A stretch of DNA of 64,000 nucleotides from Butyricicoccus sp. (GTDB lineage Bacteria > Bacillota > Clostridia > Oscillospirales > Butyricicoccaceae). The translations under genes and the position numbers were made by a program. The stretch's first letter is position 1, and the number at the start of each line of letters is the position of its first letter. This document shows, piece by piece, positions 44,932 through 64,000 of this stretch. A model generated the notes under the pieces. That model saw only the letters and a list, made by a program, of their open reading frames with translations, made no database searches and was not told the DNA's origin. The stretch is taken from NCBI GenBank assembly GCA_963931655.1, contig OZ007036.1, forward strand, positions 319,783 through 383,782. Direction: 5' to 3'.

Positions 44932-44936
44932 TTTAA

Positions 44937-44977: not shown

Positions 44978-45001
44978 ATTCGTATTTTGATTTTTGTTAT
45001 A

Positions 45002-45275: not shown

Positions 45276-45293
45276 AAATATATTAAAAGTCTA

Positions 45294-45343
45294 TTGACAA
45301 ATAACGTCTACAAGTGTAAACTATAAATGTCTACAAAGGTAGA
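45294..45343 (+). promoter_or_regulatory. Sigma-A promoter with BlaI-type operators
   Basis: TTGACA(45294)-17bp-TAAACT; TACA-AG-TGTA (45309-45318) and tcTACA-AA-GGTAga (45330-45343). Confidence 0.7.
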
Positions 45344-45368
45344 ATAAATAATTGGAGATGTATAACGA

Positions 45369-45737: not shown

Positions 45738-45740
45738 TAT

Positions 45741-47435: not shown

Positions 47436-47441
47436 AAAAAC

Positions 47442-47468
47442 AAACGGCAACATTTTTTGTTGCCGTTT
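47442..47468. terminator. Bidirectional terminator
   Basis: aaacggcaaca / tgttgccgttt. Confidence 0.75.
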
Positions 47469-47488
47469 ATTTTATACGAAAAATTACA

Positions 47489-49165
47489 TTATCTTAGTTT
47501 AAATTGAGATACAAGTTCTTTTAAGCGACCTGCTTGTTCACCTAAATCAACACTTGCAGCAGCACTTTCTTCTGAAGTTGCTGAATTAGTTTGAACAACA
47601 ACAGAAATTTGATTTATGCCTTCACTTATTTGTGAAATTGCTTCAGATTGTTCCTTAACACTGCAAGAAATATCACCCATAAGTTTATCACTTCTTTGAA
47701 TACCTTCTACTACATTAGCCAAAGCATCTGCTGTTTGAGAGGCGATATTAACACCCTTATCGACCGCGTGTGACGAAATTTCAATAATCTGTGAAGTTTG
47801 CTGGCTTGCTTGGGCACTTTTACTAGCCAAATTTCTAACCTCATCAGCAACAACAGCAAAGCCTTTACCAGCAGCACCAGCTCTTGCGGCTTCAACCGCT
47901 GCATTAAGTGCAAGAATATTTGTTTGGAATGCTATATCTTCAATAGTTTTTATAATAGCCACGATTTTTTTAGAAGCCTCTCTAATTTCGTTCATAGCAT
48001 CTGTCATCTCGTTCATCATTTCATTACACTTATAAACTTCCATATTGGAATTATCAATTTCATTCATAGCTTCTTGAACAGATGTCTCAGTTCCCTTAAT
48101 TTGATTAGAAACATCATTAATTGTTGCAGCAAGTTCTTGTACAACAGAAGCTTGTTCTGTAGAGCCTTGAGCTAGTGCCTGAGCACCATTTGCAACTTGA
48201 GATGCATTTGAATTAACTTGTTGTGCTGAATCATCAATGCTATATAAAGTGCTATTAAGAGAAGATATAATATTTTCAAGTGCATTTTTGATTTCGGAAA
48301 ACTCACCAACATATTGTAATGTAACTTTTTGAGTAAGGTTACCCTTTGATATTTCAGATAATTTATCTTTTATATCAACTATGTATGAAGACAATGCCTT
48401 TCTAGTAGTTTGCATGGAACTAATTAACATACCAAGTTCAGATGTATCAGCTTGTAGTTCTGATTGTGTTGTCAAATTACCTTTAGACATTTCAAGCATT
48501 TCTTTTTGTATCTTATTTATTGGGTTTATAATACGTTTACGAGTTAGTACTATACCAAAAATTTGAGAAACAATAGTACCTATACATACAATAATAGCCA
48601 AAACTTTTAAAACTGAGCTCATAGCCATTCTTGAATTGATTTCGTTTTCAGTTCTAGTTTGAAGATTTTCTAAAAGTTGGTCTTGTAATGCATGAATTTT
48701 AGATAATGTATTAGAATAATCATTTCCATAAACATAACTTATTGCTGATGCGTTATTACCAACACTAACTTCTTCCATAGCACTTGTTTCTAATGGTACA
48801 AGCTCATTAGATAAATTAGACATTTCAGTTATTATTGCTAATTCATCGTCTGTAATTCCAATATCCTCCATAGCTTGAACACTTTTTTCACGATTTTTAT
48901 CAGTGTTCACTTCTTGCATATATTCGTTATAATAAGTTTGGTTTCCTGTAACAGCATATGCTCTAACTTTTTCAGTTAATAATGCAGACGCATCAATAAA
49001 CTGTTGAGCATAGTTGTTCAAAAAAAGCTGATTTTGAGCACTAGTCAAAGTTAGCTCATGAAAAGTTATAACCATAGTAAAAAAGATTATTACTAATACT
49101 GCAAATGTAATAGTTATACCATTTAAAATGCTTGTTAAAGTAGATTGTTTTATTGCTCGTTTCAT
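47489..49165 (-). CDS. Methyl-accepting chemotaxis protein
   Basis: Two TMs, HAMP domain, [37 protein letters not shown]. Confidence 0.95.
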
Positions 49166-49365
49166 AATCTTTTTCCTTTCACACTTTATAAATAAAGACA
49201 AGAAATATAAAGCTTAAAAATATATTTACGTTAACAAAATTTTAACATTTTAAACAATATATTGTCAAGCGAATAAATATATTCAGTCAACTATGTTAAA
49301 AAATGTAAAAATAATTTTTATTGCAATAAAAAATGACAACAAATATTGCTGTCATTTTTAAATGT

Positions 49366-49894
49366 TTAATATTCTATTAAAGGCATAAGTTGATTTTTAC
49401 AAATCCAATCAAGATTATATTTATATCTAGCCATAGTTTTAGCATTTAAGCATTTGTCTTCTCTCATTAGATTTACTATTATATTGCTATGTTCTTCATA
49501 ATAAGCTTTTTCTGATGGCTATATTATGCACTAAATGCCAACCTTGATATAAAATATCATGCATTATACATACATCTACATCTTTTAGATATTTTATATA
49601 ATCATTAGCGATTACATCAGCTTCTTGAAAGAAAGTGTCATGTACTTTACCATTTGGGGAGGAGTAATCATACCACTGTATATTTTTACCATTGAGAGTG
49701 TTGGTTATTTTAACCCATTCAATTCTTTTATCACTAAAAACACCAAATCTATCACTATCTGGACAGTTTTCACTTACTAAAACTTTAATATTAACATTTT
49801 CGTTAAGTAACATTTTTATTTGGTCAGCAACTACATTTACAAGTGAATATATAGTTGATAGACCATTAAACATTGTTAAAATTGCAATATTCAT
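49366..49894 (-). pseudogene. Glycosyltransferase remnant with large internal deletion
   Basis: The GT4-like N-terminus (YSLVNVVADQ...MHDILYQGWHLVHNIAIRK) joins out of frame to a C-terminal tail (...AKTMARYKYNLDWICKNQLMPLIEY*). The family call is from recollection. Confidence 0.6.
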
Positions 49895-49922
49895 ATTTAG
49901 ATAACCTACTTTCTTATTAAAA

Positions 49923-49955
49923 TTTTGGCGTAACCAATAAAAGGTTACGCCAAAA
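49923..49955 (-). terminator. Hairpin terminator
   Basis: ttttggcgtaacc / ggttacgccaaaa. Confidence 0.65.
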
Positions 49956-49961
49956 CTAGCG

Positions 49962-50264
49962 TTATTTTAATTTCTTACAATCACAAGAACATTCTTTAAA
50001 TAAATCTATTTTATCCTTGAGTATCATTTCAAGATTAGAAATGGAGTTTACCATGGCTTCAACAGATTTGTTAGTTTCTAGTAATATTTCAGCAGTTGCA
50101 TTTTCCATAGCAACCACTCTTTGAATTTTCTCGCCTTCAGCATTTAGAATGTGAGAAAGTGCGGTTTCCTCAAGTGCAACAGATTGAATAATGTCAGTAA
50201 TAGTCTGACTTCTAGTTGTTGTGCTTGATGTGATAACTGGCATTCCCATAATTACTTCAGCCAC
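49962..50264 (-). CDS. Small spore-surface-associated protein (SVALEETALSHILNAEGEKIQ family)
   Basis: I recall this motif in small Bacillota proteins near collagen-like/exosporium genes. A CATAGTAT sporulation-type -10 element lies upstream. Confidence 0.55.
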   Translation of the reverse strand: MAEVIMGMPVITSSTTTRSQTITDIIQSVALEETALSHILNAEGEKIQRVVAMENATAEILLETNKSVEAMVNSISNLEMILKDKIDLFKECSCDCKKLK

Positions 50265-50343
50265 TTAATTTATATTGATTGAGCTTTCGCTCGATAATAT
50301 ACTATGCAAGCTGAGATATAAAGTTGACTAAATTTTTGAAAAT

Positions 50344-51060
50344 TTAAGGTATAAGTCCTAATTGTCTAGCTCTGCGTTTTACAGCATTTTCATTTCTTTT
50401 TAGATAAAGACATATTTCTTTCATAGGTGTATTTTGGTTTATAGCATTTATTAGATATTTTTCATGTTCAAGTTTCCAAGATTGTCCTTGTAATGAAAAG
50501 CTACTTTTATTAAAATCAAGCATAGCATTTATATTATCAACTATAAAATGTTGAGCTTCATTGTTATATACAACGACATGATATATACGATATGGGTTAC
50601 TTCTTTCCTCTACACTAATACCCATGTCAATGCCAATTTTTGTAGGGCGTTTTCTTATATTACCATCTTCATTTATTATTTCTTCAAGCAAACCTAAAGA
50701 AATTAACCAAATATTAAAATGTCTTGCTTGAAGTTTTATCATATTTTCGCTTTCTCTTAATACATTAAGTCTATATGCTATTTCACTGATAGATATTGGT
50801 GAGCTAGAAAAATCAAAATGAGCTTTTTTGTTTTCAGAAATTGAAAAAGGGATTTTCTTTTCTTTCTTTTTGTTGTTTTTAGTTCCACCATTATCAATGA
50901 CATTTTGTAATATATCTCCAACAAAATAAAGACATCTTGAAATTCTAACATTATTTATTATATCATTGTCGTTTATGGTTTGACCATTTAGAGGATTTAT
51001 TCCTTTTGCTAAGTAATCAATATACATTTTAGCTCTTTTAATAGTTTCAAGTTCAGTCAT
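50344..51060 (-). CDS. Hypothetical protein
   Basis: 238-aa ORF; N-terminal YIDYLAKGINPLNG segment and C-terminal HTH-like tail. Confidence 0.65.
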   Translation of the reverse strand: MTELETIKRAKMYIDYLAKGINPLNGQTINDNDIINNVRISRCLYFVGDILQNVIDNGGTKNNKKKEKKIPFSISENKKAHFDFSSSPISISEIAYRLNVLRESENMIKLQARHFNIWLISLGLLEEIINEDGNIRKRPTKIGIDMGISVEERSNPYRIYHVVVYNNEAQHFIVDNINAMLDFNKSSFSLQGQSWKLEHEKYLINAINQNTPMKEICLYLKRNENAVKRRARQLGLIP

Positions 51061-51185
51061 ATCAAATTCACCCCAATCATTTACAATATTATATCAATTT
51101 GTAAAAAGCATATCAATTAGAAATATATTTATAAAAATATTTTTTAGTGTATAATGGTAGTAATAATGATAGGGAAGTGTTAATT

Positions 51186-51941
51186 ATGATTTTTTATTTT
51201 AGTGGCACAGGTAATAGTAAATATTGTGCAGATATGCTTGCGGATAAATTAGAGGATATAGTGATAAATACAGCCGATTATATAAAAAAAGATGGTAAAT
51301 TTAATTCAGATAAACCTTTAATATTTGTTTGTCCAACATATGCATGGAAAATTCCAAAAGTATTTGCTGATTTTATAAAAAAATCAAACTTTTCAGGCGA
51401 TAATAATGCATATTTTATTATGACTTGTGGTGGAGAAACAGGTAATGCAAAAAAAGAAATTACAGATTTATGTATGCAAAAAGGGTTTATATATAGAGGT
51501 TTATTACCTATAGTTATGCCAGATAATTATATAGTGTTATTTCCAGCACCAAAAGAAGAACAAATATCGCAAATGATTGAAAAGTCTCATAAAAAGATAA
51601 ATGATAACATAAATATAATAAAAAAGCTTGGTAATTTTAAACGTTTAAATACTAACGCTTTTGATAATTTAAAATCTGGTGCAATAAATACAGGAATGTA
51701 TAAATTTTTTATTAAAACGAAGAAATTTAAGGTGGAAAATACTTGTATATCATGTGGCAAATGTGAAAAAGTTTGTCCACTTAATAATATCAAGCTTATA
51801 AATAATAAACCAGTATGGGGTAATGACTGTACACATTGTATGGCATGTATATCATATTGCCCAGTAAGTGCTATTGATTATGGAAAAGCTACAAAGGGAA
51901 AAAGAAGATATACATGCTGTGAATATAAAAAAGAAAGGTAG
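51186..51941 (+). CDS. EFR1 family flavodoxin-ferredoxin fusion
   Basis: YFSGTGNS; two 4Fe-4S motifs CISCGKCEKVCP and CTHCMACISYCP. Confidence 0.9.
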   Translation: MIFYFSGTGNSKYCADMLADKLEDIVINTADYIKKDGKFNSDKPLIFVCPTYAWKIPKVFADFIKKSNFSGDNNAYFIMTCGGETGNAKKEITDLCMQKGFIYRGLLPIVMPDNYIVLFPAPKEEQISQMIEKSHKKINDNINIIKKLGNFKRLNTNAFDNLKSGAINTGMYKFFIKTKKFKVENTCISCGKCEKVCPLNNIKLINNKPVWGNDCTHCMACISYCPVSAIDYGKATKGKRRYTCCEYKKER

Positions 51942-51946
51942 AAAAA

Positions 51947-52720
51947 ATGTTAAATTATATAAAGGAAAGAATATATAAAAATCCATTACAAGTAGAATTA
52001 AATAAAATAGAAAAAATAGAAAATAAAATAATAAAAGAGCGAATTAATTATAAACCAAAAAATTTTAATATACCCGAAAAAGTAAATGATACTCTTAAAA
52101 AGGCATTTAATACAGCTTTTGACATTGTTTTTAGCAAAGGTACAAGTATAATAGAAAAAACATATGATAAATCTGAAAAAGAAAAGGATTTTTTGATAAG
52201 AGATTTTATATTTAATAACAATCCAAATAAAAAAGAAATCAAAAAGTTAAAAACTAAAAATATAAACAATATAGTATTAAGTACAGCAGAGGGCGTTGGA
52301 CTTGGTTTACTTGGTATAGGTTTACCAGATATAGTTTTGTTTGTAGGAATGATTTTAAAAGGTGTATATGAGATATCTATAAAATATGGTATAGATTATA
52401 ATTTGCCTGAAGAAAGAATGTTTATTTTAAAACTTTTACAAGCATCTATGCAAAAAGGAGAGGAATTTGTAAATGTAGATAATCAATTAAATGATATTAT
52501 AAAAAATGATTTTATAGAGAGTGATGAAGATATAAAAAATCAAATAACAAAAACATCAAATGTATTTGCAGATGAAATGTTAATTATGAAGTTTATACAA
52601 GGTTTACCTATTATAGGTATTATAGGAGGGCTTTCAAATCCAGTATATTATAATAAAATAATTAGTTTTGTTGAGTTAAAGTATAGGAAGAGATACTTAT
52701 ATAAAAAATTACATCATTAA
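51947..52720 (+). CDS. EcsC family protein
   Basis: EGVGLGLLGIGLPDI, KFIQGLPIIGIIGG. Confidence 0.7.
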   Translation: MLNYIKERIYKNPLQVELNKIEKIENKIIKERINYKPKNFNIPEKVNDTLKKAFNTAFDIVFSKGTSIIEKTYDKSEKEKDFLIRDFIFNNNPNKKEIKKLKTKNINNIVLSTAEGVGLGLLGIGLPDIVLFVGMILKGVYEISIKYGIDYNLPEERMFILKLLQASMQKGEEFVNVDNQLNDIIKNDFIESDEDIKNQITKTSNVFADEMLIMKFIQGLPIIGIIGGLSNPVYYNKIISFVELKYRKRYLYKKLHH

Positions 52721-52762
52721 ATTTATCTTTTTACCTCTTGCTATAAGGAGAGTTTAGCGATT

Positions 52763-53332
52763 ATGAAAAACAAGATTATCATCATATTGATAGTTTTAGT
52801 TAGCATTTTAATATTTGCAGGGGGTAAAAATTATATTTTAAACGATAGTAAAACCGTAGAAATAGGGTTTGAAAATATTGGTGAGCTTGTAACACAATCG
52901 GTATATTGTACAGAAGTAAATGTTATAGAGGCTTCAAGAGAATTATGGGGTATTGAAATACCATTTACGCAAAGCAAGTATATTTATAGCTATGATGTTA
53001 TAATAAAAGCGGGTTATGATTTTGAAGATATAAAATGGAGTGTCAAAGATAATGTTATAACGGTTATATTGCCAGAGGTTAAAATTTTAAGCAATGAAAT
53101 AGTTGATGGTTCATTTAAGGTGTATCATGAGCAAGAAAGTATATTTAGACCTATTTCCTTAGCAGAGAATAATAAAGCTCAAGAAAATTTAAAAGAAAAT
53201 GCAAAACAAAGTGCAATAGATAACGGTTTGTATGAAAATGCAACAGAAAATGCAAAAACAATACTTAAAAGCTTTTTTTCAAATGCATATGATTTAAAAG
53301 AATATGAAATTAAATTCAAAAAACAGCAGTAA
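52763..53332 (+). CDS. DUF4230 domain protein
   Basis: N-terminal TM, IGELVT, IKAGYDF, VILPEVKILSNEI. Confidence 0.75.
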   Translation: MKNKIIIILIVLVSILIFAGGKNYILNDSKTVEIGFENIGELVTQSVYCTEVNVIEASRELWGIEIPFTQSKYIYSYDVIIKAGYDFEDIKWSVKDNVITVILPEVKILSNEIVDGSFKVYHEQESIFRPISLAENNKAQENLKENAKQSAIDNGLYENATENAKTILKSFFSNAYDLKEYEIKFKKQQ

Positions 53333-53334
53333 AA

Positions 53335-54129
53335 TTAATTACTGCTGTTTTGGTTATTATGATGACCGTTTTGTTTGCCATATTGGTGATGACCATTGTT
53401 ATTATTTTGATTACAATTTTGACCTTGACCAGAATAGCTGGTTGAGTTTGTGTCATATTGGTTATCATTTTGTTTTACACTGGAAATTAAATCGTTAATT
53501 TCTCGCATTGACATTTGTTTTACTTCATCAGAAGTTAAATTTATACCTAACTCTTTAAGTTGTAAATATGCTTTATATTTGCCATATGATAGCCCCAGCG
53601 AATGAGCATCAGAAACTTCATCAGAATTTAAAGAATAACAATGCATATTTTGATTTTGAGAAGTGCAATGAGATACATATTCAAGTATATTTTCGCCTTG
53701 ACTTTGGTCTATTGGCAGTACAGCAATAGACAAAGTTTCATCATTAGATAGGCAGTTTAAAACAGTTTCACTTTCAAGAATTTCATCAATAGCAGAGTTA
53801 TAATCCTTAAACATAATATTCAGAGAGTCAGAAAGAATTTCACCATCAGAATTATAAGAGTCAACCGATATTATTTTATCAAAACGGTTAACATCAAGCT
53901 CAATAGAAGGGTTAATGTCTATGCTAATAACAGATGTAGGGGTAAAATATTCTTTATATCCGCCAAAGCCTATAAGGGCTAAACATGCAAAAGTTGCACA
54001 CATTGGACGTAAAATACTGCGTTTATGATGCGTTTTACTTTCGATAAAAGTTATAGTTTGACTTTTAAGGTTATCATCTGCATGTATGTTATCAAAAGCT
54101 GATTTAATTTTATTCTGCATAGTCATCAC
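53335..54129 (-). CDS. Anti-sigma factor, RsgI-like
   Basis: Single TM, ISIDINPSIELDVN motif, low-complexity N/Q/H tail. Confidence 0.75.
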   Translation of the reverse strand: MMTMQNKIKSAFDNIHADDNLKSQTITFIESKTHHKRSILRPMCATFACLALIGFGGYKEYFTPTSVISIDINPSIELDVNRFDKIISVDSYNSDGEILSDSLNIMFKDYNSAIDEILESETVLNCLSNDETLSIAVLPIDQSQGENILEYVSHCTSQNQNMHCYSLNSDEVSDAHSLGLSYGKYKAYLQLKELGINLTSDEVKQMSMREINDLISSVKQNDNQYDTNSTSYSGQGQNCNQNNNNGHHQYGKQNGHHNNQNSSN

Positions 54130-54595
54130 CTCCTAAAGTGGTTTTAAGAAGCTGTTTACCTCTATTTAGATATGTATATATAGTATTTACATTTTTATTT
54201 AATATTTTTCCGATTTCTGGTGCAGAATAACCTTCATAATAATGTAAATATATAACTTTTCTATATTTTTCGGGTAGTGCTAAAACAGCCTCCAATACTT
54301 CTTTATTATCATCATCTGGTATATCAGCTTGCTCTATAACTTCATCTAAAGATACAGTTTTGGCGCGAAAAAAGCTTTTTAATAAATCTTTACAAGCATT
54401 TATAGTAACACGAACAAACCAAGCCTTTTCATGTTCATAGTTTTCAAATACTGCGGAGCTAAGGGCATATTTTAAAAATACATTTTGAAATATATCTTCA
54501 GTATCAGCATAATTCTTTAAATGTATTAAGCAAATACGTCTAACTGTATCAGCATATTTTTCGATTGCTTGAGTTATTTCCCATTCGCTCCGCAT
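54110..54595 (-). CDS. ECF RNA polymerase sigma factor
   Basis: DTEDIFQNVF, AWFVRVTINACKD, region 4 LYLHYYEGYSAPEIGKIL-like. Confidence 0.92.
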   Translation of the reverse strand: MRSEWEITQAIEKYADTVRRICLIHLKNYADTEDIFQNVFLKYALSSAVFENYEHEKAWFVRVTINACKDLLKSFFRAKTVSLDEVIEQADIPDDDNKEVLEAVLALPEKYRKVIYLHYYEGYSAPEIGKILNKNVNTIYTYLNRGKQLLKTTLGGDDYAE

Positions 54596-54907
54596 AAAAC
54601 TACCCCCTAATTATCTATGCTTGCCTAGTTGTCTACCTGTGCCATCTTTTGGACAAGTACCCATGTTATCACAAATACCATCACCATTTTCATCTACAAA
54701 GTACGAGCCGTTGCCACAAGTACCTTTGTTATCACAAATACCATCACCGTTTTCATCTACAAAGTATAAACCGTTGCCACAAGTACCTTTGTTATCACAA
54801 ATACCGTCACCATTTGCATCAACAAAATATAGACCATTGCCACCAGTACTAATGTTATCACAAACACCATCGTTGTTTAAATCGACATAATTTGTGGTTT
54901 TATTAAG

Positions 54908-55961
54908 TGATAAATTGTCAAGTCAAAAGCGACAGTTGATGAAAGAAAACTTCATAGGCAGATTTCCACTTGAGACATTTTCGAGGTCTAGAATTTATAA
55001 GAAATAAAGCTTTTTGTAAATCATTATAGGAAACTTTAGCTAAATCAGTTTTTTTAGGAAAGAATTCTCGTAATAAACCATTTGAATTTTCATTTGTGCC
55101 CCTTTGCCAAGATGAATAAGGGTCAGCAAAATAAAATGGAATATTCAAATCACGTTCAATATTTAAATAACATGCAAACTCTTTACCTCTATCTACAGTT
55201 GCAGTTTTAAAAGCTTTTTTAGGCAGAATATTAGCAACAAATCTTACTGCATTTTCCATTGAAGATGCAGTTCTATCTGGAATTTTTATAGCAATATACA
55301 TTCGTGTTTTTCGTTCTGCAAATGTAGCAAAACAGCCTTTACTCTCACCACGACTAGAAACAATTGTATCTAATTCCCAATGACCAAATGTTGTTCTTTT
55401 CTTAATTTCTTTTGGTCTTTTAGATATTGATTTGCCAATATTGAAACGTCCTCTTGTTTCTTTTGGTTTATGTCTCTTTCCCTTATGTCTAAGTAATTTT
55501 AAACCATTTGTTGAGATTATACCTTTATAAATCCAACGGTATATCGTTTTGAAACTAACTACTCCTTTGGTCAGTGTATTTGCAATCTGTTCTGGAGAAT
55601 ATGTGCTGTTTAAACCTCTTTCTATCTGCTTAACCAAAGCTTTTGAATATTTTCCTTTTGGTTTTGAGTTTTTTCTTCGAATACAGTATTTTTTATGGGC
55701 AGTTTCTGCATTATACATTTGCTCATTATTGCGTTTTAATTCTCTTGCAACGGTACTATGATGTCTACCTATTTCTTTTCCTATTTTACGGGCTGAATAT
55801 CCCAATTTTTTTAATACCTCTATACGGCTTCTTTCAAATGTGGTAAGATGTTTATAGCTCATAAGTAAACTCCTTTTGTGTTATGTTGTGTGGTAACTTC
55901 ATTTTACACTATAAAGTTTACTTGTGGGCTTTTTTGTCGCACTTAATTTTACAATCCATCA
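54908..55961 (-). mobile_element. IS30-family insertion sequence (1,054 bp)
   Basis: Imperfect 26-bp terminal inverted repeats (54908-54933 and 55936-55961) and a 2-bp target duplication AG (54906-54907 and 55962-55963). Confidence 0.9.
54918..55862 (-). CDS. IS30-family transposase
   Basis: HLTTFER, GHWELDTIV, TVDRGKEF, WQRGTNENSNGLLREFFPK. Confidence 0.95.
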   Translation of the reverse strand: MSYKHLTTFERSRIEVLKKLGYSARKIGKEIGRHHSTVARELKRNNEQMYNAETAHKKYCIRRKNSKPKGKYSKALVKQIERGLNSTYSPEQIANTLTKGVVSFKTIYRWIYKGIISTNGLKLLRHKGKRHKPKETRGRFNIGKSISKRPKEIKKRTTFGHWELDTIVSSRGESKGCFATFAERKTRMYIAIKIPDRTASSMENAVRFVANILPKKAFKTATVDRGKEFACYLNIERDLNIPFYFADPYSSWQRGTNENSNGLLREFFPKKTDLAKVSYNDLQKALFLINSRPRKCLKWKSAYEVFFHQLSLLT

Positions 55962-56261
55962 AGTTTATATGTTTGATTTTGCCTACCATGATAAGCAAAT
56001 GCACTTGCTGTACCAGCTGTAATAACTAATGCAGAGATTATAACTCCAGAAACTAACTTTTTCATAATAATAATTCCTCCTGATAAATAGTGTTTTAAGT
56101 GGTTTCATATATAATACGACTGACAAATATAAATCCATTCAAAAAAATAAAAAAATTTTTTTGTTAAAATTTTTTAACAAAATATATTGTCATTTATTGA
56201 AAATTAAAAACTTTAAATATATACTTATTTATATAGTTTATATTGAATTGGGGGAATAAAT

Positions 56262-57818
56262 ATGAAAAAAGGTATGGCGGATACAATAAAAGATGCTAAA
56301 CTATTGCCAATAAGACTTATATTAGGTGGATTATTAGTTGGTATTGTATCAGGTTTTATTGTTATGCTTTATCGTCTTGTTTTGCAATATGCAGAACAGG
56401 TTTTGGAATTTATTGTAGATTTTATATCAGGCTCTATAGTAAAGGAAATTGTTTGGATAGCAATTTTAATGATAATAGCGGTTATTGTGGCTAAATTAAT
56501 AAAATTTGAGCCTATGATTTCGGGAAGTGGTATCCCTCAGATAGAGGGAGAAATGACAGGTAAATTAAATCAAACATGGTATAAAGTGTTACCTGCTAAA
56601 TTTATCGGTGGGTTTTTATGTTTGTTATCTGGTCTTTCATTAGGTAGAGAAGGTCCATCTATTCAGCTTGGTGCTATGAGTGGAAAAGGTATATCAAAAT
56701 TATTATCTTTGGGTAAAACTGATGAAAAATATATGTTAACATGTGGGGCAAGTGCAGGTTTAGCGGCAGCATTTAATGCACCGCTTGCAGGTGTTTTGTT
56801 TTCGCTAGAGGAAATACATAAAAATTTCTCAGTATCTGTTTTGATATCAGTTATGACTGCATCTGTTACAAGTGATTATTTATCTTCTAGCATATTAGGT
56901 AATGACCCTGTGTTTAATTTTTCGATTACACAAGACCTTCCTATGAAATATTATGGTTTAATAATTGTTTTAGGAATAATACTCGGATTTTTTGGTGCAT
57001 TTTATAACTGGTTTACATTGAAAATACAATCTTTATATCAAGAATGTAAATTTTTAAATCAAACAACTAGAGTTATGATACCATTTTTTATTGCAGGTAT
57101 TTTAGCATTTACTGTACCTGTACTTCTTGGCAGTGGTGGCAATTTAATAAAAATGATAACAACAACTAAGTTAGGTATAACAGTTGCAGTGTTAATTCTT
57201 ATAGGAAAATTTATTTATTCAGGTGTGAGTTTTGGTTCTGGTGCACCAGGAGGAATATTTTTTCCAATGCTAGTTTTAGGCGGGTTTACAGGTGGAATTT
57301 TTGCAATGATTTGTATAAATATCTTTGGACTTCCAGCCGAATATTTAAATAATTTTGTTTTATTAGCTATGGCAGGATTTTTTACAGCGATTGTTAGAGC
57401 ACCACTTACAGGCATTATTTTGATTTTCGAGATGACAGGTTCACTCAGTCAGCTTACATCTTTACTTCTCATATCTGTATCAGCATATATAGTAGCAACT
57501 CTTTTAAAATGTGAGCCTATATATGAAAGTTTGTTAACAAGGATTTTAAAGCGTCAAGGACAAAAAATAGATAACAAAGAAAAAGTGTTAAAAGAATATA
57601 TAATAATGCATAATTCACCTATTGATGGAATGAAGATAAGTGAAATTGATTTACCTTCAAATGTGTTAATAGTGGCTATTCGTAGAGGAAGTGAAGAAAT
57701 TTTACCAAATGGTGATACAAAACTATATGCCAGTGATGTGTTATTGGTAATGTCTAATGAAAATGGTGATATATATGATAGTTTAAACAATCTGTGCACA
57801 GAAAACAGTATATGTTAA
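56262..57818 (+). CDS. ClC family H+/Cl- exchanger with TrkA-C domain
   Basis: GSGIP, GREGPSIQ, GAPGGIFFPM, AIVRAPLTG; C-terminal IRRGSEEILPNGDT. Confidence 0.92.
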   Translation: MKKGMADTIKDAKLLPIRLILGGLLVGIVSGFIVMLYRLVLQYAEQVLEFIVDFISGSIVKEIVWIAILMIIAVIVAKLIKFEPMISGSGIPQIEGEMTGKLNQTWYKVLPAKFIGGFLCLLSGLSLGREGPSIQLGAMSGKGISKLLSLGKTDEKYMLTCGASAGLAAAFNAPLAGVLFSLEEIHKNFSVSVLISVMTASVTSDYLSSSILGNDPVFNFSITQDLPMKYYGLIIVLGIILGFFGAFYNWFTLKIQSLYQECKFLNQTTRVMIPFFIAGILAFTVPVLLGSGGNLIKMITTTKLGITVAVLILIGKFIYSGVSFGSGAPGGIFFPMLVLGGFTGGIFAMICINIFGLPAEYLNNFVLLAMAGFFTAIVRAPLTGIILIFEMTGSLSQLTSLLLISVSAYIVATLLKCEPIYESLLTRILKRQGQKIDNKEKVLKEYIIMHNSPIDGMKISEIDLPSNVLIVAIRRGSEEILPNGDTKLYASDVLLVMSNENGDIYDSLNNLCTENSIC

Positions 57819-57822
57819 TTAT

Positions 57823-57856
57823 AAAAGCCAAAAATCATTAAGATTTTTGGCTTTTT
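57823..57856 (+). terminator. Rho-independent terminator
   Basis: aaaagccaaaaatc / gatttttggcttttt. Confidence 0.7.
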
Positions 57857-57927
57857 CTATTAAAGTAATAGTAAAGTGTTATTTATTCATATAATATATT
57901 AAATTTATTTGAGAGGGGTAAATAATA

Positions 57928-58047
57928 ATGACAAAAAGTACATCTATTATAAATGTTTTTAAAAATGGAACAGATAAAATTTCTAAATCTGATTTCACAA
58001 AAAAATGGATTGAGCTTGTAAATCAAATGGAAAAAAACAATAAATGA
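57928..58047 (+). CDS. 39-aa protein translationally coupled to recombinase 2 (candidate directionality factor)
   Basis: Translated by hand: MTKSTSIINVFKNGTDKISKSDFTKKWIELVNQMEKNNK; GAGGGG RBS; ATGA overlap with the recombinase start; CATATAAT at 57888-57895. Confidence 0.6.
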   Translation: MTKSTSIINVFKNGTDKISKSDFTKKWIELVNQMEKNNK

Positions 58048-59591
58048 AAGTAGCTATTTATTGTAGATTGTCCGAGGAAGATAAAAACAAGAAATTTGAA
58101 ACTGATGATAGTAATAGTATACAAAACCAAAAATCAATGTTAATACAATATGTTATTGAGCATGATTGGGAGCTTTATAATATATATAGCGATGATGATT
58201 ATACAGGAGCAGATAGAAAACGTCCAGAATTTAACAGACTTCTTAAAGATGCAGAAAATCACAAGTTTGACATTATACTTTGTAAAACTCAATCACGCTT
58301 TACTCGTGAATTAGAGCTTGTTGAAAAATATATACATGGTTTATTTCCATTATGGGGTATACGTTTTATTAGTGTAGTGGATAATGCTGATACAGATAAT
58401 AAAGGAAATAAAAAATCACGTCAAATAAATGGTCTTGTAAATGAATGGTATCTTGAAGATATGTCAGAAAATATAAAAAGTGTACTTACAAACAGACGTA
58501 AAAACGGTTATCATATTGGTTCATTTGCACCTTATGGCTATAAAAAAGACCCTGATAAAAAAGGACATCTTATTATAGATAATGAGGCTGCAAAGGTTGT
58601 TCGTGAGATATTCATTTTATTTTCAAAGGGATATGGTAAAACTTATATAGCAAGAATGTTAAATGATAAAGGTATACCAAATCCAACTGAATATAAACGT
58701 TTACAAGGTTATAAACAAGCAAATAAGCATAATAGCACACTTTGGAAATACTTTACAATATCCAATATATTAAAAAATGAAGTATATATAGGAAATCTTG
58801 TCCAAGGTAAATATGGAAGTGTATCTTATAAGACCAAGAAAAATAGACCTCGCCCCCAAAGTGAATGGTATAAAGTTTGTGGGGTACATGAACCTATAAT
58901 TGAGCGGGATTTATGGGAGAGAGTACAAAATTTAATAAATCAAAAAAATAGACCTTTTGAAGTAGGAAAAATAGGTTTATTTGCTGGTAAAGTTAGATGT
59001 ATAAACTGTGGTTATACAATGCGTTCATCTAAAACTAAAAAAATAAACTATCTTAAATGCTCAACTAAGCATATCGCTAAAAATTCATGTATTGGTTCTT
59101 TTATATCAGTTGCAAAGCTTGAAAAAATAATTATTGATGAAATAAATAAATTTTTATCTGAATTTTTAGATAAAGATATGCTAGAAAGTAATATTCATTT
59201 TTGTAATGATTTTGAAAAAGAAAGAAATCAACTTATTTCAGATATAAAATTATATCAAAAAAAGGTTGATGAGTATTCAAAATATATAAAACAATTATAT
59301 ATAGATAAAATAAAAGGAATTATAAGTGAAAGTGATTATATTTCATTTTCAAATGAGTTTACTTTAAATAGAGAGCGCTTGAAAAATATAATAAATGAAA
59401 ATCAAAAACAGCTTGATGATATAGAAAAAAATATTAAATCTGGTATAAATCAAAAAGAGACAATAGAAAAATATATAAATTTAAAAAATTTAAACCGAGA
59501 GATAGTTGAAACACTAATAGATTATATATATGTTGGAAAACGAATAAAAGGAACAAAAGAAATTCCGATTGAAATTCATTGGAATTTTTAA
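58044..59591 (+). CDS. Large serine recombinase of element 2
   Basis: AIYCRLSEED, CKTQSRFTR, recombinase domain, CINCG...C...C zinc ribbon, coiled coil; stop abuts the att arm. Confidence 0.95.
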   Translation: MKVAIYCRLSEEDKNKKFETDDSNSIQNQKSMLIQYVIEHDWELYNIYSDDDYTGADRKRPEFNRLLKDAENHKFDIILCKTQSRFTRELELVEKYIHGLFPLWGIRFISVVDNADTDNKGNKKSRQINGLVNEWYLEDMSENIKSVLTNRRKNGYHIGSFAPYGYKKDPDKKGHLIIDNEAAKVVREIFILFSKGYGKTYIARMLNDKGIPNPTEYKRLQGYKQANKHNSTLWKYFTISNILKNEVYIGNLVQGKYGSVSYKTKKNRPRPQSEWYKVCGVHEPIIERDLWERVQNLINQKNRPFEVGKIGLFAGKVRCINCGYTMRSSKTKKINYLKCSTKHIAKNSCIGSFISVAKLEKIIIDEINKFLSEFLDKDMLESNIHFCNDFEKERNQLISDIKLYQKKVDEYSKYIKQLYIDKIKGIISESDYISFSNEFTLNRERLKNIINENQKQLDDIEKNIKSGINQKETIEKYINLKNLNREIVETLIDYIYVGKRIKGTKEIPIEIHWNF

Positions 59592-59618
59592 AATTTGTTC
59601 TTATATGATTGCAGCAGA
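59592..59618 (+). other. attR of element 2
   Basis: Arm aatttgttcttata (59592-59605) plus core GCAGCAGA (59611-59618). Confidence 0.85.
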
Positions 59619-59766
59619 GCAAAAGGCTCGTACAACTTATGATAATTTATTAAGACTTATTGATGACCCAGATGTTAGAGACCCTATTAAATTTTTACGT
59701 CAAAGAGAAGTAACACACTTCCAACGTTTTGGTGATACAAAAAGGATATTATCAAACACAAAATAA
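59619..59766 (+). CDS. cotJC: cotJC segment 3, aa 136-174 (then 10 possibly non-cotJC codons)
   Basis: EQKARTTYDNLLRLIDDPDVRDPIKFLRQREVTHFQRFG, then DTKRILSNTK*. Confidence 0.9.
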
Positions 59767-59773
59767 AATATAA

Positions 59774-59831
59774 TTGACTTATCTTGTCTAATATGATAGA
59801 CTAAAGAAAAACAAAGTCTAATAGATTAGAC
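59774..59831 (+). promoter_or_regulatory. Sigma-A promoter with two palindromic operators for the second BlaI-like repressor
   Basis: TTGACT(59774)-17bp-TAGACT; GTCTA-ATATGA-TAGAC (59786-59801) and GTCTAA-TAGA-TTAGAC (59816-59831). Confidence 0.7.
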
Positions 59832-59845
59832 AAGGAGGCTTATAT

Positions 59846-60214
59846 ATGGAAATTCCAAAAATTTATGAAAGTGAATATCGTTTTTGTTTGATTATGTGGG
59901 AGCATGAACCAATAAAAGCAGCTCAACTTGTTAAGTTGTGCAATGAGCAGCTAGGTTGGAAACGAACTACAACTTATACAGTAATTAAGCGTTTAGGTGA
60001 ACGTGGTGTTTTGAAAAATGAGAATGGAATAATTAAATCTTTAATATCTAAAGAACAAGCACAATCATCTGAAATTGATGAATTAGTAGAAAAGAAATTT
60101 GAGGGCTCATTACCAGCGTTTATAGCAGCTTTTACTAAACGTCAAGATTTATCAAGAAAAGAATTGGACGAAGTTCAGCAAATGATTGACCGAATTAGGA
60201 AAGGAGGATTTTAG
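59846..60214 (+). CDS. BlaI/MecI/CopY family repressor
   Basis: ESEYRFCLIMW, WKRTTTYTVIKRLGERG. Confidence 0.9.
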   Translation: MEIPKIYESEYRFCLIMWEHEPIKAAQLVKLCNEQLGWKRTTTYTVIKRLGERGVLKNENGIIKSLISKEQAQSSEIDELVEKKFEGSLPAFIAAFTKRQDLSRKELDEVQQMIDRIRKGGF

Positions 60215-62013
60215 TGAATGAGCTATTTTTAAAAATCTTCAATATGAGCATATCAGCAAGTTGGCTTATTTTAGCAGTGCTGATATTTAGGTTGATTTTG
60301 AAGAAAGCTCCAAAGTGCATATATGTTATACTTTGGGGTATTGTTGCAGTCAAATTAATTTGTCCATTTTCTATTAAAAGTGCGTTTAGCTTAATTCCAA
60401 GTGCAGAAACAATTCCTATAAACATTGAAATGGATTTTAAACCTACTATTGACAGCGGTATTCCAGCAATTAATAGTGTTGTAAACCCAGTAATAAACCA
60501 AACTTTTGCACCCGCTAAGGGGGGGAGTGTTAATCCTTTGCAAATTTTAATTTCTATATTTGCATTTATCTGGATAATTGGAATGGCGATATTATTTGTA
60601 TATAGTGCTTTTAGTTATTTAAGATTAAAAAGAAAAATTGATACAGCAGTTTTATATCAAGACAATATTTTTCAAAGTGAAAATGTAAGTTCTCCATTTG
60701 TTCTAGGTATTATAACCCCAAAAATATATATACCGTTTCAGATTAAAGAGCAAAATTTAAAATATATAATTGCACATGAAAAGGCACATATTAAACGTAA
60801 AGATAATTTATGGAAACCGTTTGGATTTATTTTACTAACTATTCATTGGTTTAATCCTTTGGTATGGTTATCTTATATGCTGTTATGTCGTGATATTGAG
60901 CTTGCTTGTGATGAAAAGGTTATCAAATCACTTGATAATGAGCAGAAAGCTGACTACACACAAGCACTTGTATCTTATAGTATAAATCGTCATTTGATTA
61001 CTGCTTGCCCGTTGTCATTTGGTGAGATTGGTGTTAAAAAAAGGGTGAAATCAATTATGAAATACAAAAAGCCTTCATTTTGGATTATTACAGTATCAAT
61101 TATTGCATTGATAATATTTGGAGTATGCTTTTTAACAAATCCTAAAACATCACAACAGTCACAAAATTTGGATTTATCAAAAGCATCTGAAGTTGAAACA
61201 CTACCAACGATAATAGATGAGTATGATACTGAAATAACAGCTGATGATATATTAAATTTGGCTGTTAAAAACGCTATTATAGATAATAATAAATCATATG
61301 ATACAAAAGATTTAATTAGTTGTGCAAGTTTTATAACTTTACAGCAGTCCAATTTAGCTATTGATAGTGCTCCAGCTCAGCCTAATCAAGTTATATTGTA
61401 TGGTATGGCTATGTATCAAGAATTCAAATTAGATAATAATCAGCTTAAAGAAGTAGGTGGCTTACATTGTCCAGTAGTATTGACATTTGAAGAAACTGGA
61501 GATAATTATAAATTACTAGAATATTGGCAACCTCGTGATGGAAGTTATTATGAACAGGATATTAGAGATAAATTTCCAGATGAAGTAGAAGATTATGCAA
61601 TGGATACTCAAAGGTATGTGGCACAGCAAACACAAAAATGTTATGACCAAGCGGTTGTATATCTTAAAAATACTATTAATGATAATTCAAATATTGGAAT
61701 TATACTTTATGATGATGATAGACTGGGAGGAAATGCTTCTGTTGTCTCTACTGATTTTACAGCAACTGATGGTTCTGGTAATACTATTAGTGTTTGGTAT
61801 GATAATCAAGAAAGTTCATCTGTTAAGGTTACACTATATAAGTATGGTTGGTTTGGTATGAAAGATGTTGTTCTTGAATTTGATGTTGCTGGAAATGATG
61901 ATGAAAGGAAAGAATACATAGCAAGCAAAGCTAGCAGGTATTATGTTAATATATCTGCAAATGATGGCGGCAAAGTAACAGGTCATTTACAAGTAAATCA
62001 AATTTATACTTAA
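60214..62013 (+). CDS. M56 (BlaR1-like) metallopeptidase sensor
   Basis: HEKAH motif, IHWFNPLVW, DIELACDE; its extracellular C-terminal region differs from that of the first M56 gene. Confidence 0.9.
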   Translation: MNELFLKIFNMSISASWLILAVLIFRLILKKAPKCIYVILWGIVAVKLICPFSIKSAFSLIPSAETIPINIEMDFKPTIDSGIPAINSVVNPVINQTFAPAKGGSVNPLQILISIFAFIWIIGMAILFVYSAFSYLRLKRKIDTAVLYQDNIFQSENVSSPFVLGIITPKIYIPFQIKEQNLKYIIAHEKAHIKRKDNLWKPFGFILLTIHWFNPLVWLSYMLLCRDIELACDEKVIKSLDNEQKADYTQALVSYSINRHLITACPLSFGEIGVKKRVKSIMKYKKPSFWIITVSIIALIIFGVCFLTNPKTSQQSQNLDLSKASEVETLPTIIDEYDTEITADDILNLAVKNAIIDNNKSYDTKDLISCASFITLQQSNLAIDSAPAQPNQVILYGMAMYQEFKLDNNQLKEVGGLHCPVVLTFEETGDNYKLLEYWQPRDGSYYEQDIRDKFPDEVEDYAMDTQRYVAQQTQKCYDQAVVYLKNTINDNSNIGIILYDDDRLGGNASVVSTDFTATDGSGNTISVWYDNQESSSVKVTLYKYGWFGMKDVVLEFDVAGNDDERKEYIASKASRYYVNISANDGGKVTGHLQVNQIYT

Positions 62014-62038
62014 TTAAAAATTTTATTTTAAACTCAAA

Positions 62039-62072
62039 AGGCTGGCAGATGAAAAATATCGTCTGTCAGCCT
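62039..62072 (+). terminator. Hairpin terminator
   Basis: aggctggcagatg / cgtctgtcagcct. Confidence 0.65.
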
Positions 62073-62142
62073 TATTATAGTATTTATTTTTTAGACAAAT
62101 AATGGTATAATTTGCTTAATCAAATAAGGAGAAAATATACAT

Positions 62143-62553
62143 ATGATTAGAGAAATTTGCAAAGATGAAAAATTTTTGGCACAGAAATCAGAATTTGCTA
62201 CATTACAAGATATATCTATTGCAGAAGATTTATTGGAAACATTAAAACATCATAAATTGGGTTGTGTTGGTATGGCAGCTAATATGATTGGTATAAATAA
62301 ACGTATAATTGCATTTGATAATAATGGTGAATATATGGTTATGTTTAATCCAGAAATTATAAAAAAATCTGAACAATATCAAACGGAAGAAGGCTGTCTT
62401 TCTTTAACGGGCACTCGTTCAACTAAAAGATGGAAATCAATTAAAGTTAAATATCAAAATGATAAATTTCAGGAGAGATTTAAAACTTTTACAGGCTTTA
62501 CAGCTCAAATTATACAGCATGAAATAGACCATTGTAATGGTATAATAATATAA
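62143..62553 (+). CDS. def: Peptide deformylase (short form)
   Basis: GCVGMAANMIG, EEGCLS, QHEIDHCNG. Confidence 0.88.
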   Translation: MIREICKDEKFLAQKSEFATLQDISIAEDLLETLKHHKLGCVGMAANMIGINKRIIAFDNNGEYMVMFNPEIIKKSEQYQTEEGCLSLTGTRSTKRWKSIKVKYQNDKFQERFKTFTGFTAQIIQHEIDHCNGIII

Positions 62554-62571
62554 AATATTGGAGGGATAATT

Positions 62572-62900
62572 ATGAAATTATTATTTGATTTTCCACAGTG
62601 TTTTTTAGTTCCTATTTTTGTTGCAGTTATTTTCGCTGTAGTTGACATTGTTCTTAACAAACGAATTTCAAAATTATCTTCCTTAATTTTCTTGTGTCAG
62701 TTATTTTTCTTTGTGCACATATAATGTATATGATTTCATTTTCTAATGAAAACGGCATTATAGAGCAATTTAATCATTTTTTACATACTGATGCAGCTAT
62801 AGCTGTTGTTGTTGTATGGACACCACTTTTAATAGAAATTATAATTATAAATGCAATAGTTTTAGCTTATAAAAAATTTATAGACAATACAAATAGGTGA
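62572..62900 (+). CDS. Small membrane protein (possible frameshift near 62690)
   Basis: The hydrophobic ORF from ATG 62572 (GGAGGG RBS) stops early; a hydrophobic frame continues in ORF 62694-62900. Confidence 0.45.
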
Positions 62901-62905
62901 GTAAA

Positions 62906-63400
62906 ATGTTTCGCAAAATGAGAAGATTTAAACAACAGTTAACAGATGAAGAAACAATTCAGATATTAAAAAAAGGTAAAACAGGTATTTTAGGGGTTAT
63001 AGGTGATGAAGGATACCCTTATACTGTGCCAATAAATTATGTGTATGAAAACAATAAAATCTATATTCATTGTGCCAAAACTGGTCATAAAATAGATGCA
63101 ATTAAAAATAATAATAAAGTTTCTTTTTGTGTAATAGAAAAAGATGATGTGGTGAAAGAAAAGTTAACTACATATTATAAAAGTGTCATTGCTTTTGGTA
63201 AAGCAAGAATACTTGAAACCGATAAGGAAATTTTTCGTGCAGCACAGAGTTTAGGTTTTAAGTATAGTGATGATAAAGAGCATGTACAAAAAGAAATAAA
63301 ACAAGAATTGAAAGCCCTTGCTTGTGTAGAAATTGTTATTGAACATATGACAGGAAAACAATCCAAAGATTTAGCTATACAATGCCTAGGAGTTGATTAA
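62906..63400 (+). CDS. Pyridoxamine 5'-phosphate oxidase / NimA-like protein
   Basis: MRRFKQQL, GYPYTVPINY, IYIHCAKTGHKID, YKSVIAFGKA. Confidence 0.85.
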   Translation: MFRKMRRFKQQLTDEETIQILKKGKTGILGVIGDEGYPYTVPINYVYENNKIYIHCAKTGHKIDAIKNNNKVSFCVIEKDDVVKEKLTTYYKSVIAFGKARILETDKEIFRAAQSLGFKYSDDKEHVQKEIKQELKALACVEIVIEHMTGKQSKDLAIQCLGVD

Positions 63401-63605
63401 AATGTTATTATTAGGTGGTATTGCACTTTTAATTATTGGGATTTTAATGATTATTGCACCAGATGAAATTTATGAAATAGTAGAAAGTTGGAAAAATAAT
63501 TCAGCTAGCTCACCATCAGATTTATATAAACTAAATACACGTATAGGTGGAATTATGTTTTCTATTGTTGGACTTGCTGGAATAATAGTATATTTTATTT
63601 CTTAG
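63393..63605 (+). CDS. Small two-TM membrane protein
   Basis: Two hydrophobic segments flanking ESWKN...PSDLY. Confidence 0.55.
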   Translation: MIKMLLLGGIALLIIGILMIIAPDEIYEIVESWKNNSASSPSDLYKLNTRIGGIMFSIVGLAGIIVYFIS

Positions 63606-63613
63606 AAGGTGAT

Positions 63614-63829
63614 TTGATGAAATGTCCATATTGCGAAAATGAAATGATTAGTGGAAAAATATGTTCTATATCTAGAAATTCAGGGCTTGTTTGGAAAGAT
63701 ACTGAAGAACAAATTAGATTAAATGATGAACCCAAACTTGTTGCACGTATAAACGGTGATAGAATATCAGGCTATATATGTAAAAATTGCAATAAGATAA
63801 TTGTTGATTATTTCCCATGCAATAAATAA
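63614..63829 (+). CDS. Small zinc-ribbon protein
   Basis: MKCPYCENEM...GYICKNCNKII. Confidence 0.6.
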   Translation: MMKCPYCENEMISGKICSISRNSGLVWKDTEEQIRLNDEPKLVARINGDRISGYICKNCNKIIVDYFPCNK

Positions 63830-63921
63830 TGATAGTGTGTTTTATGTCAACGTAACGTAGGTTGTTATATATGAACTTCATTGATATAATTATGACAATA
63901 AAAAATTAAGGAGAAAAAACA

Positions 63922-64000
63922 ATGAATTCTTATATTACAGGTTCTACAATAAAACGATTAAGAGAAGCTAAGGGACTAACACAAGCCGAATTAGCAGAAA
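63922..64000 (+). CDS. XRE-family HTH regulator (partial, runs off window)
   Basis: MNSYITGSTIKRLREAKGLTQAELAE; AAGGAG RBS. Confidence 0.75.
   Translation, partial: MNSYITGSTIKRLREAKGLTQAELAE

Follow-up and report, generated by a model that had tools for sequence, protein, structure and literature searches.

Intervening elements that split sporulation genes and are excised by large serine recombinases are already known as a kind; to our knowledge they have been described one per gene, in sigK, spsM, gerE, spoVFB, spoVR and yabG. Here we describe the gene cotJC in a 64,000-nucleotide stretch of Butyricicoccus sp. (contig OZ007036.1 of assembly GCA_963931655.1; the window, below, is this whole stretch), where a single 633-bp gene lies in four pieces, separated by three elements with unrelated serine recombinases and crossover sites of their own. 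Our main subject is the third of these, element 3, which runs off the end of the window, as the original prediction, made from the letters of the window, had proposed.

The closest described systems are skin in B. subtilis sigK (recombinase SpoIVCA) and its C. difficile counterpart skinCd (CD1231 and CD1234). Like element 3, these lie inside a mother-cell sporulation gene, carry a large serine recombinase gene at the element edge beside the downstream gene piece, and leave a restored open reading frame (ORF) upon exact excision. In skinCd, directionality is given by a small protein without known relatives that is controlled by sigmaE and SpoIIID, and the scheme it shares with SPbeta pairs a constitutive recombinase with a small directionality factor under a sporulation sigma factor (PMC5025042). 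A small ORF of element 3 corresponds to the skinCd directionality protein in position and size. What differs from skin is the target (cotJC, not sigK), the cargo, which is not prophage-like, and the presence of three independent elements in one gene. In B. cereus gerE, the element gin is neither a prophage nor a conjugative element, and is excised by a large serine recombinase with a small directionality factor (GirC and GirX), both sporulation-specific (PMC5595907). It resembles element 3 in that it interrupts a very small sporulation gene while belonging neither to prophages nor to conjugative elements. The differences are that gin stands alone, is 28.6 kb long and has three recombinase genes, one of which acts; the three elements here have a single recombinase and a site of their own each, and the host is not B. 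cereus but a gut (chicken-gut) member of Clostridia.

For SPbeta in spsM, a serine integrase and a sigma-controlled directionality factor (SprA and SprB) rebuild a mother-cell gene (PMC4191935 and PMC5499854). SPbeta is an active phage, while element 3 is without phage genes and the nearest integrase in the phage collection is at most 32% identical to its recombinase. The same target gene as ours is named in one sentence of Galperin et al. (bioRxiv 10.1101/2022.02.25.481979), which mentions, for Laceyella sacchari (Bacilli), that cotJC carries a skin-like element whose recombinase resembles SpoIVCA; the paper reports no site, multiplicity or rejoining, and the likeness is one of description only. 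In the literature searched we found this sole mention of cotJC as a target and no description of a multiply interrupted cotJC, of three unrelated elements in one small gene, of a recombinase family devoted, across gut Clostridia, to one cotJC codon, or of minimal 2.4-kb versions and RNA evidence of complete reassembly.

A tblastn search with a B. subtilis CotJC query found three collinear cotJC pieces in the window, at 27906-28091, 45018-45251 and 59608-59751. The third interruption had been predicted at GGT-GA|T, and the truncation there is real: in ORF 59569-59766 the CotJC-like sequence ends, as described, at HFQRFG and is followed by D-TKRILSNTK and a stop (C-terminal end ...AAEQKARTTYDNLLRLIDDPDVRDPIKFLRQREVTHFQRFGDTKRILSNTK or ...REVTHFQRFGDTKRILSNTK), so that the frame departs from the family consensus right after ...HFQRFG-GA, the GA being 59734-59735 within ggt-GA-t, and stops 10 codons on. 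Searching a large protein collection with the three joined pieces, we found the closest full-length homologues to be P0007, P0009 and P0012, each of 210 aa and 87-90% identical. After HFQRFGD they read ALRTVQENLDAKNYYAYNPEFDVQPVPQPRNMPR(L/I), a continuation also given as ALRTVQENLDAKNYYAYNPEFDVQP...; aligned with the window, all three show this long tail and none has a GDTKRIL-like end. The tail KRILSNTK occurs in none of the intact homologues. Five further homologues (P0001, P0004, P0008, P0021 and P0036) also depart exactly after RFGE, which suggests that the same codon is struck in other genomes.

The remainder of element 3 came from a public contig, L001 (ENA ERZ21549435, 2.0 Mb), one of six contigs returned by an exact-protein look-up of the deformylase gene at 62143-62553. 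L001 is 100% identical to window 52143-64000 and extends further (L001 coordinate + 52,142 = window coordinate). On it, element 3 has a length of 11,912 bp, the left 4,265 bp (59736..64000) lying inside the window and the rest reaching L001 19505. Both items forecast for this region are there. The first is a third large serine recombinase, 485 aa long. The second is a fourth cotJC segment: 28 nt after the recombinase gene the sequence reads TTTGGTGA|TGCACTTCGT... (right junction TTTGGTGA|TGCACTT...), with 32 nt from the recombinase stop to the crossover GA, and the following ...ttattgTTTGGTGATgcacttcgtaccgttcag... encodes (G)DALRTVQENLDAKNYYAYNPEFDVQPVPQPRNMPRI*, the exact missing cotJC tail of 36 codons. 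It is not the short E(A/G)LxIxQ stub that had been expected, as 36 residues follow the Asp.

Element 3 is inserted inside codon 174 of cotJC. Removing elements 1-3 in silico yields a CotJC of 210 aa, which aligns gap-free with P0007 at 90% identity (210/210 residues), and none of the four pieces holds a frameshift, stop or deletion. The rebuilt protein has the PF05067 Mn_catalase domain (E 4e-54) and the CotJA and CotJB genes lie directly upstream; by domain and by operon position after cotJA and cotJB, the rebuilt gene is a CotJC / manganese catalase family member. Expression of cotJ in the mother cell is established for B. subtilis. About 50 nt upstream of cotJA (window 27294-27302 and upstream) we noted AC-N17-CATAGAATA, which fits the consensus shape of a sigmaK-type promoter and would be consistent with mother-cell expression of the operon.

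These data leave a negligible place for the idea that GDTKRILSNTK is a natural C-terminal variant or an assembly artefact. The B. subtilis CotJC sequence RFREAVEIL does align with RFGDTKRIL, matching at IL. We rejected a natural short C-terminus since homologues 87-90% identical bear the long tail, and the exact missing tail lies 11.9 kb downstream, behind a recombinase; an artefact was rejected since the junction is spanned by contigs of nine public runs and by four assemblies.

The two junctions of element 3 have 9 bp in common (TTTGGTGAT), with the GA crossover inside. Crossover at GA, as originally proposed, is supported by comparison across loci: the identical attL/attR cores of eight loci, the window included, overlap in GA only, and GA is therefore the crossover. 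The partial dyad ttttg-gt-GA-ta-caaaa noticed around it exists and is weak alone. Comparison of both element ends in the attP arrangement gives 16 of 25 arm positions paired around GA (null mean 7.3, P about 3e-4), the right arm being an imperfect inverse of tacaaaaaggatattatcaaac, as had been predicted for the downstream end. With the three-domain set of the recombinase (Resolvase, Recombinase and Zn_ribbon_recom), which also matches the phrog_95 integrases (E 4e-90), and short att sites in which imperfect inverted arms flank a 2-bp crossover, element 3 has the hallmarks of a large serine recombinase system, and that it is a real recombinase element splitting cotJC we regard as virtually certain. 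One parallel with element 2 held in part. At element 2 the codon does read GA|T at the left junction against GA|G at the right (gcagcaGAtgct against gcagcaGAgcaa). At element 3, unlike element 2, the interrupted and restored Asp codon is GAT in both forms and there is no residue change.

Element 3 is an integrative element, neither prophage nor conjugative: among its gene calls and Pfam matches there are no phage structural, packaging or lysis genes and no mobilisation or conjugation genes. Prophage identity was rejected on the lack of phage genes and the low identity to phage integrases given above. The recombinase is distant from characterised ones, the best PDB match being the TP901-1 integrase N-terminal domain (E 2e-17); its nearest relative in the plasmid collection is at most 47% identical. 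These closest plasmid relatives, AP025982.1 and NZ_CP028186.1, are Campylobacter jejuni plasmids, where a serine integrase of the Clostridia type is unexpected, and match over the full length. Large serine recombinases of Tn4451 and Tn5397 (TnpX and TndX) cross over at a GA dinucleotide, as does element 3 and, by implication, element 2. Membership of element 3 in the TnpX/TndX family was nevertheless rejected: its recombinase is without DUF4368, the match to TnpX covers residues 13-106 only (the catalytic domain, E 1e-7), and the mobilisation or conjugation genes of these transposons have no counterpart among the element 3 gene calls. A more distant analogy is offered by the cyanobacterial nifD, fdxN and hupL elements (XisA, XisF and XisC), which interrupt genes that only the terminally differentiated cell needs, are excised during heterocyst differentiation and of which several per gene occur; the phylum is different and the recombinase classes are partly different, which makes this an analogy only.

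Elements 1 and 2 are built on the same plan, with the recombinase gene at the right end. Their attP arms pair at 23/25 positions around GG and 20/25 around GA, respectively. The crossover centres are thus GG, GA and GA for elements 1, 2 and 3, that of element 2 being implied by arm pairing and that of element 3 shown by core overlap. Between any two of the three recombinases identity is only 24-29%, which marks three independent systems. In the strain of run X2 the same junctions are kept, but inside elements 1 and 2 its contigs depart from the window sequence (joints 28135>35203, 31180>36641 and 37769>42852 within window 28114-45275, and a loose end at 45275); the cargo therefore varies between strains while the ends and recombinases are kept.

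Public sequencing runs offer assembler contigs only, and their types are tool labels, several being guesses: eight of the nine metagenome runs used here were guessed to be DNA, and X35 was untyped. The interrupted form is present in contigs of all nine (X1, X2, X3, X6, X8, X9, X10, X11 and X35), which cross 59618 and 59736 at depths up to 72x; among the contig ends listed for these runs there is no loose end at either position. One 281-nt query stretch gave no junction coverage where longer stretches were covered, which we ascribed to a limitation of the tool and ignored. By contrast, a single 1,185-nt contig of the metatranscriptome X26 spans cotJA, cotJB and cotJC and lacks each of the three elements to the exact base. 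Window 27361-28083 comes first in it, then, after a skip of exactly 16,938 bases, 45022-45250, followed by 59611-59736 and 115 trailing nucleotides, the first 30 of which equal L001 19507-19536, that is, the cotJC tail. The joins across elements 2 and 3 were read as loose ends at 59611 and 59736, not as skip joints. In X27, a run of another study (RNA by the tool's guess), the joins of segment 2 to 3 and of segment 3 to the tail are present. Only the joined form emerged from the assembly of these two RNA runs. Cargo transcripts of 97-100% identity (from all three elements in X26, from elements 2 and 3 in X27) place the elements in the communities that hold the joined mRNA, and, a recombinase acting on DNA, the joined RNA must stem from rearranged DNA. 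A joined gene is made in cells, with the full join in X26 and two joins in X27, or else these come from a mixture of strains. In a further RNA run, X25, a contig spans attL; this could be carried-over DNA or read-through transcription.

When the detached 37-codon tail is compared in the pairs L001/L012, L001/L013 and L012/L013, each shows 8 synonymous differences and 0 non-synonymous ones, which indicates purifying selection on a cotJC tail lying 12 kb from the rest of the gene. That cotJC is a dead gene, destroyed by three successive insertions and never rebuilt, is very improbable to us. Coat assembly in C. difficile can do without CotJC-type catalases (PMC11222575), and three insertions in a single gene would fit decay. 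Against decay stand the four undamaged pieces, the selected tail, the precisely joined cotJABC contig in RNA data and the recurrence of a split cotJC with the same recombinase family across families of Clostridia.

This recurrence was found by scanning genomes with the element 3 recombinase, which gave 33 loci in other genomes at 58-89% identity, in Butyricicoccus, Ruminococcus, Oscillospiraceae, Lachnospiraceae, Dorea, Anaeromicropila and others. The recombinase gene adjoins a cotJC-type tail FG(E/D)(A/S/G)L... in 30/33 of them. At 27 loci ...TT(T/C)GG(N)GA and the tail FG(E/D)(A/S/G)L(R/D)... follow about 20-60 nt after the recombinase stop, and at three (L021-L023) the recombinase lies beside the same tail in opposite orientation; L042 ends within the recombinase gene and in L043 the tail is about 1.9 kb away. 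Where both junctions are present the elements measure 2.4, 2.6, 4.0, 4.1, 4.6, 5.0 and 5.2 kb. Judged from these sequence neighbourhoods, the family is dedicated to this cotJC codon in many species. In seven species a 1.8-kb cassette of small ORF, recombinase and right end is 99.6-100% identical while the DNA after GA is unrelated, which indicates recent horizontal spread between species with site-specific integration. These seven loci (L024, L026-L030 and L032; species by GTDB) have tails of the form FGEALD.., belonging to a different CotJC/Mn-catalase paralogue.

The other sites of cotJC are struck elsewhere as well. In L018 and L038 the sites of element 2 and element 3 are both occupied, with recombinases 56-67% identical to that of element 2 at its cotJC site, and L033 and L039 look interrupted at the element 1 site. 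Among the fetched loci there are thus elements at the same three sites, plus an apparent fourth near codon 24: in L022 and L023 (about 9550-15300) the cotJC body begins only at about residue 24 (..QFGGPDGE) and adjoins a distant relative (25% identity) of the element 1 recombinase, which looks like a further insertion site. In L008 (10508-20840; GCA_964261755.1) the RFGE/GA site holds a conjugative element with a type IV secretion system (T4SS) coupling protein, a MobA/MobL relaxase, RepA_N, Maff2 and DUF3801, so this site is used by quite different element types.

An ORF of 48-61 aa (..KMQFNIINRRP.Y....IEK.LF.VF.KY) precedes the recombinase in 32/33 loci examined; that of L012 had been missed by a pattern search. 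Upstream of a recombinase related to that of element 2, in L038, there is likewise a small ORF similar to that of element 2 (..FTKRWIELINQREKN..). In most relatives of element 3 the small ORF is preceded by a conserved non-coding block, AATAGTGTACTTGCTGTCTTTCATAAGAT(G/A)TA, that is, ATA-N17-CATAnnAT, and this is the shape of mother-cell sigmaE/sigmaK promoters. With this block, the small ORF of the relatives matches the skinCd/SPbeta scheme. A TATAAT-type promoter also separates the small ORF from the recombinase gene in many relatives. Within the 70-90 nt separating the two, we noted a conserved block (..TATAAT.. then GTGGGCGGCTCAnnTCAnnACATCGTTATGGAGG) in L014-L018, L020, L024-L032, L034, L035, L040, L041 and L044, which may be a separate promoter with a leader structure or binding site; it is absent in the element 3 of the window, L012 and L013, where the gap is 10-13 nt.

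We consider it likely that element 3 is a skin/gin-like intervening element that is excised to rebuild cotJC, and by analogy we lean towards excision being specific to sporulation. Each recombinase would recombine its own attL and attR across the 2-bp crossover (GG, GA and GA), each element would be released as a circle, and the reading frame would be restored exactly. If skin, SPbeta and gin are a guide, this would take place in the sporulating mother cell, driven by the CATA-type (sigmaE/sigmaK-like) promoter upstream of the small ORF, whose product would be the directionality factor. Indirect pointers to such timing would be the CATA-type block conserved in relatives and the RNA being joined where the DNA contigs are interrupted. 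The control scheme as a whole, promoters and small ORFs included, is one that we infer by analogy.

Several observations weigh against this reading. This organism has not been seen to sporulate. None of the small ORFs that lie upstream of the three recombinases has a match in Pfam or PHROGs, so the role of directionality factor is guessed from position and conservation. The window's element 3 keeps the -10 part of the putative promoter only (CATATGAT), the -35 ATA being replaced by a terminator hairpin, and the window has no excess of ATA-N17-CATANNAT (4 hits where 4.7 are expected), so that the promoter argument rests on block conservation across species, not on motif counts. With the -10 part only and 10 nt from small ORF to recombinase gene, the two genes of element 3 would be co-transcribed, more like those of gin or B. 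subtilis skin. Finally, no DNA attB or attP junction was seen in the assembler contigs, which drop rare variants, so the joined RNA could come from co-resident element-free strains. The sequences predicted upon excision of element 3 are CAACGTTTTGGTGATGCACTTCGTACC (attB) and GTTTATTGTTTGGTGATACAAAAAGG (attP). In the JGI metagenome collection neither attB nor a degenerate attL/attB pattern was found; attL is absent too, which means that the organism is not in that collection and makes this null result uninformative.

The last point leads to the alternative that the three are ordinary mobile elements without a developmental role, for which cotJC is a safe landing site, excision is rare and serves transfer, and joined RNA comes from element-free strains living alongside. 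The active movement of the recombinase family between species and the conjugative element at the same GA site in L008 fit such elements, as does an excised-form DNA junction not seen in contigs (the empty JGI scans lack attL as well). We nonetheless find this unlikely. No element-free cotJC of this sequence occurs in the nine metagenome runs or in four independent assemblies, and only the joined form was assembled in X26 and X27, beside cargo transcripts (from elements 2 and 3 in both, in X26 from element 1 as well). The detached tail differs between element-bearing genomes at synonymous positions only, the four pieces are all in frame and 90% identical to intact genes, and the members of 2.4-2.6 kb, consisting of little beyond recombinase and small ORF, are difficult to account for as self-transmissible elements.

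Returning to excision that rebuilds the gene, we put forward tentatively, at somewhat less than even confidence, that cotJC is kept behind three locks: three unrelated modules of recombinase and small factor must fire in the same mother cell, and the module of element 3 comes from a widespread family of minimal cassettes (down to about 2.4 kb) that is still mobile and, across Oscillospiraceae and Lachnospiraceae, has become specialised on one cotJC codon. If this is true, a multiply split cotJC is a common, unrecognised feature of gut spore-formers, and these elements make up a set, provided by nature, of orthogonal serine integrases that are triggered by development and have defined att sites. 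Questions raised are how several excisions are coordinated in one terminal cell, whether the small ORF is a new class of directionality factor and why cotJC attracts elements. Automatic annotation calls the pieces short "Mn_catalase" genes or pseudogenes, which biases sporulation gene counts of gut Clostridia. For integrase tools, the family offers many natural attP/attB pairs with a defined GA crossover.

Features of the cotJ locus and its three elements (window coordinates unless L001 is given)
Feature	Coordinates	Strand	Basis or remark
cotJA	27351..27659	+	PF11007 CotJA, E 1.8e-15
cotJB	27652..27906	+	PF12652 CotJB, E 1.1e-26
cotJC segment 1 (MWGYEKK...ILTDIG)	27906..28090	+	tblastn; ends at element 1 crossover centre GG 28089-28090
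Element 1, 16,938 bp, own recombinase at right end	28091..45028		junction comparison; skipped exactly in X26 RNA contig
Element 1 shared core ATATAGGTA	28084-28092 and 45022-45030		
Element 1 large serine recombinase, 532 aa	43333..44931	+	PF00239, PF07508, PF13408
cotJC segment 2 (TEELAHQEM...DLFEDLAA)	45029..45250	+	tblastn, junction comparison; ends at crossover GA 45249-45250
Element 2, 14,368 bp, BlaI/M56 pair at left end, recombinase at right end	45251..59618		junction comparison
Element 2 shared core GCAGCAGA	45243-45250 and 59611-59618		
39-aa ORF overlapping element 2 recombinase start, candidate directionality factor	57928..58047	+	ATA-N17-CATATAAT upstream at 57868
Element 2 large serine recombinase, 515 aa, DUF4368 tail	58044..59591	+	PF00239, PF07508, PF13408
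cotJC segment 3 (EQKARTTYDN...THFQRFG + GA of Asp codon), 39 codons	59619..59735	+	ORF list, tblastn, restoration
Element 3 shared core TTTGGTGAT, 9 bp	59728..59736 and L001 19498-19506		left/right junction comparison
Element 3 crossover dinucleotide GA	59734..59735		core overlap of 8 loci; cassette of 7 species loses identity exactly after GA
False tail encoded by element 3, (GA)T-KRILSNTK-stop	59736..59766	+	in frame from element left end
Element 3 left arm tacaaaaaggatattatcaaacaca	59736..59760		imperfect inverse of right arm; 16/25 paired, P about 3e-4
Two operator-like dyads (GTCTA-N6-TAGAC, GTCTAA-N4-TTAGAC)	59786..59831		between element 3 left end and BlaI-type gene; read directly
BlaI/MecI-type repressor, cargo	59846..60214	+	PF03965, E 1.9e-20
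BlaR1-type M56 sensor/peptidase, cargo	60214..62013	+	PF05569, E 3e-49
Peptide deformylase, cargo	62143..62553	+	PF01327
PNPOx-like flavoprotein, cargo	62906..63400	+	PF01243 / PF12900
DUF6199 small cargo gene	63402-63605	+	Pfam
DUF6487 small cargo gene	63617-63829	+	Pfam
XRE-type HTH gene, 5' end, cut by window end	63922..64000	+	full at L001 11780-12364
Element 3 small ORF, 48 aa	L001 17858-18004		upstream of recombinase; conserved in relatives
Element 3 large serine recombinase, 485 aa	L001 18015-19472		Resolvase PF00239 (E 4e-34), Recombinase PF07508, Zn_ribbon_recom PF13408

The cargo of element 3 opens, as had been noticed from the window, with a BlaI/M56 pair straight after the junction, and the dyads ahead of it are probably, from their sequence and position, the operators of the BlaI-type gene. 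Element 2 bears a different dyad pair (..TCTACAAGTGTA..) upstream of its own BlaI gene. Past the window end, L001 continues with the XRE-type regulator, DUF4407, a MATE pump with a MarR regulator on the opposite strand and a PadR regulator, and further on with an FtsW/RodA/SpoVE homologue, a 214-aa protein without assigned function, the small ORF and the 485-aa recombinase.

Within element 2, an IS30-like transposase gene (HTH_38 and rve) lies at 54918-55862 on the minus strand and is transcribed in all four RNA runs. Contigs break around it, at 54909-54914 and at 55960/55961, which probably marks the ends of a multi-copy insertion sequence. Beside it, at 54621-54890, is a repeated coding-like unit (..PLPQVPLLSQIPSPFSSTKY..).

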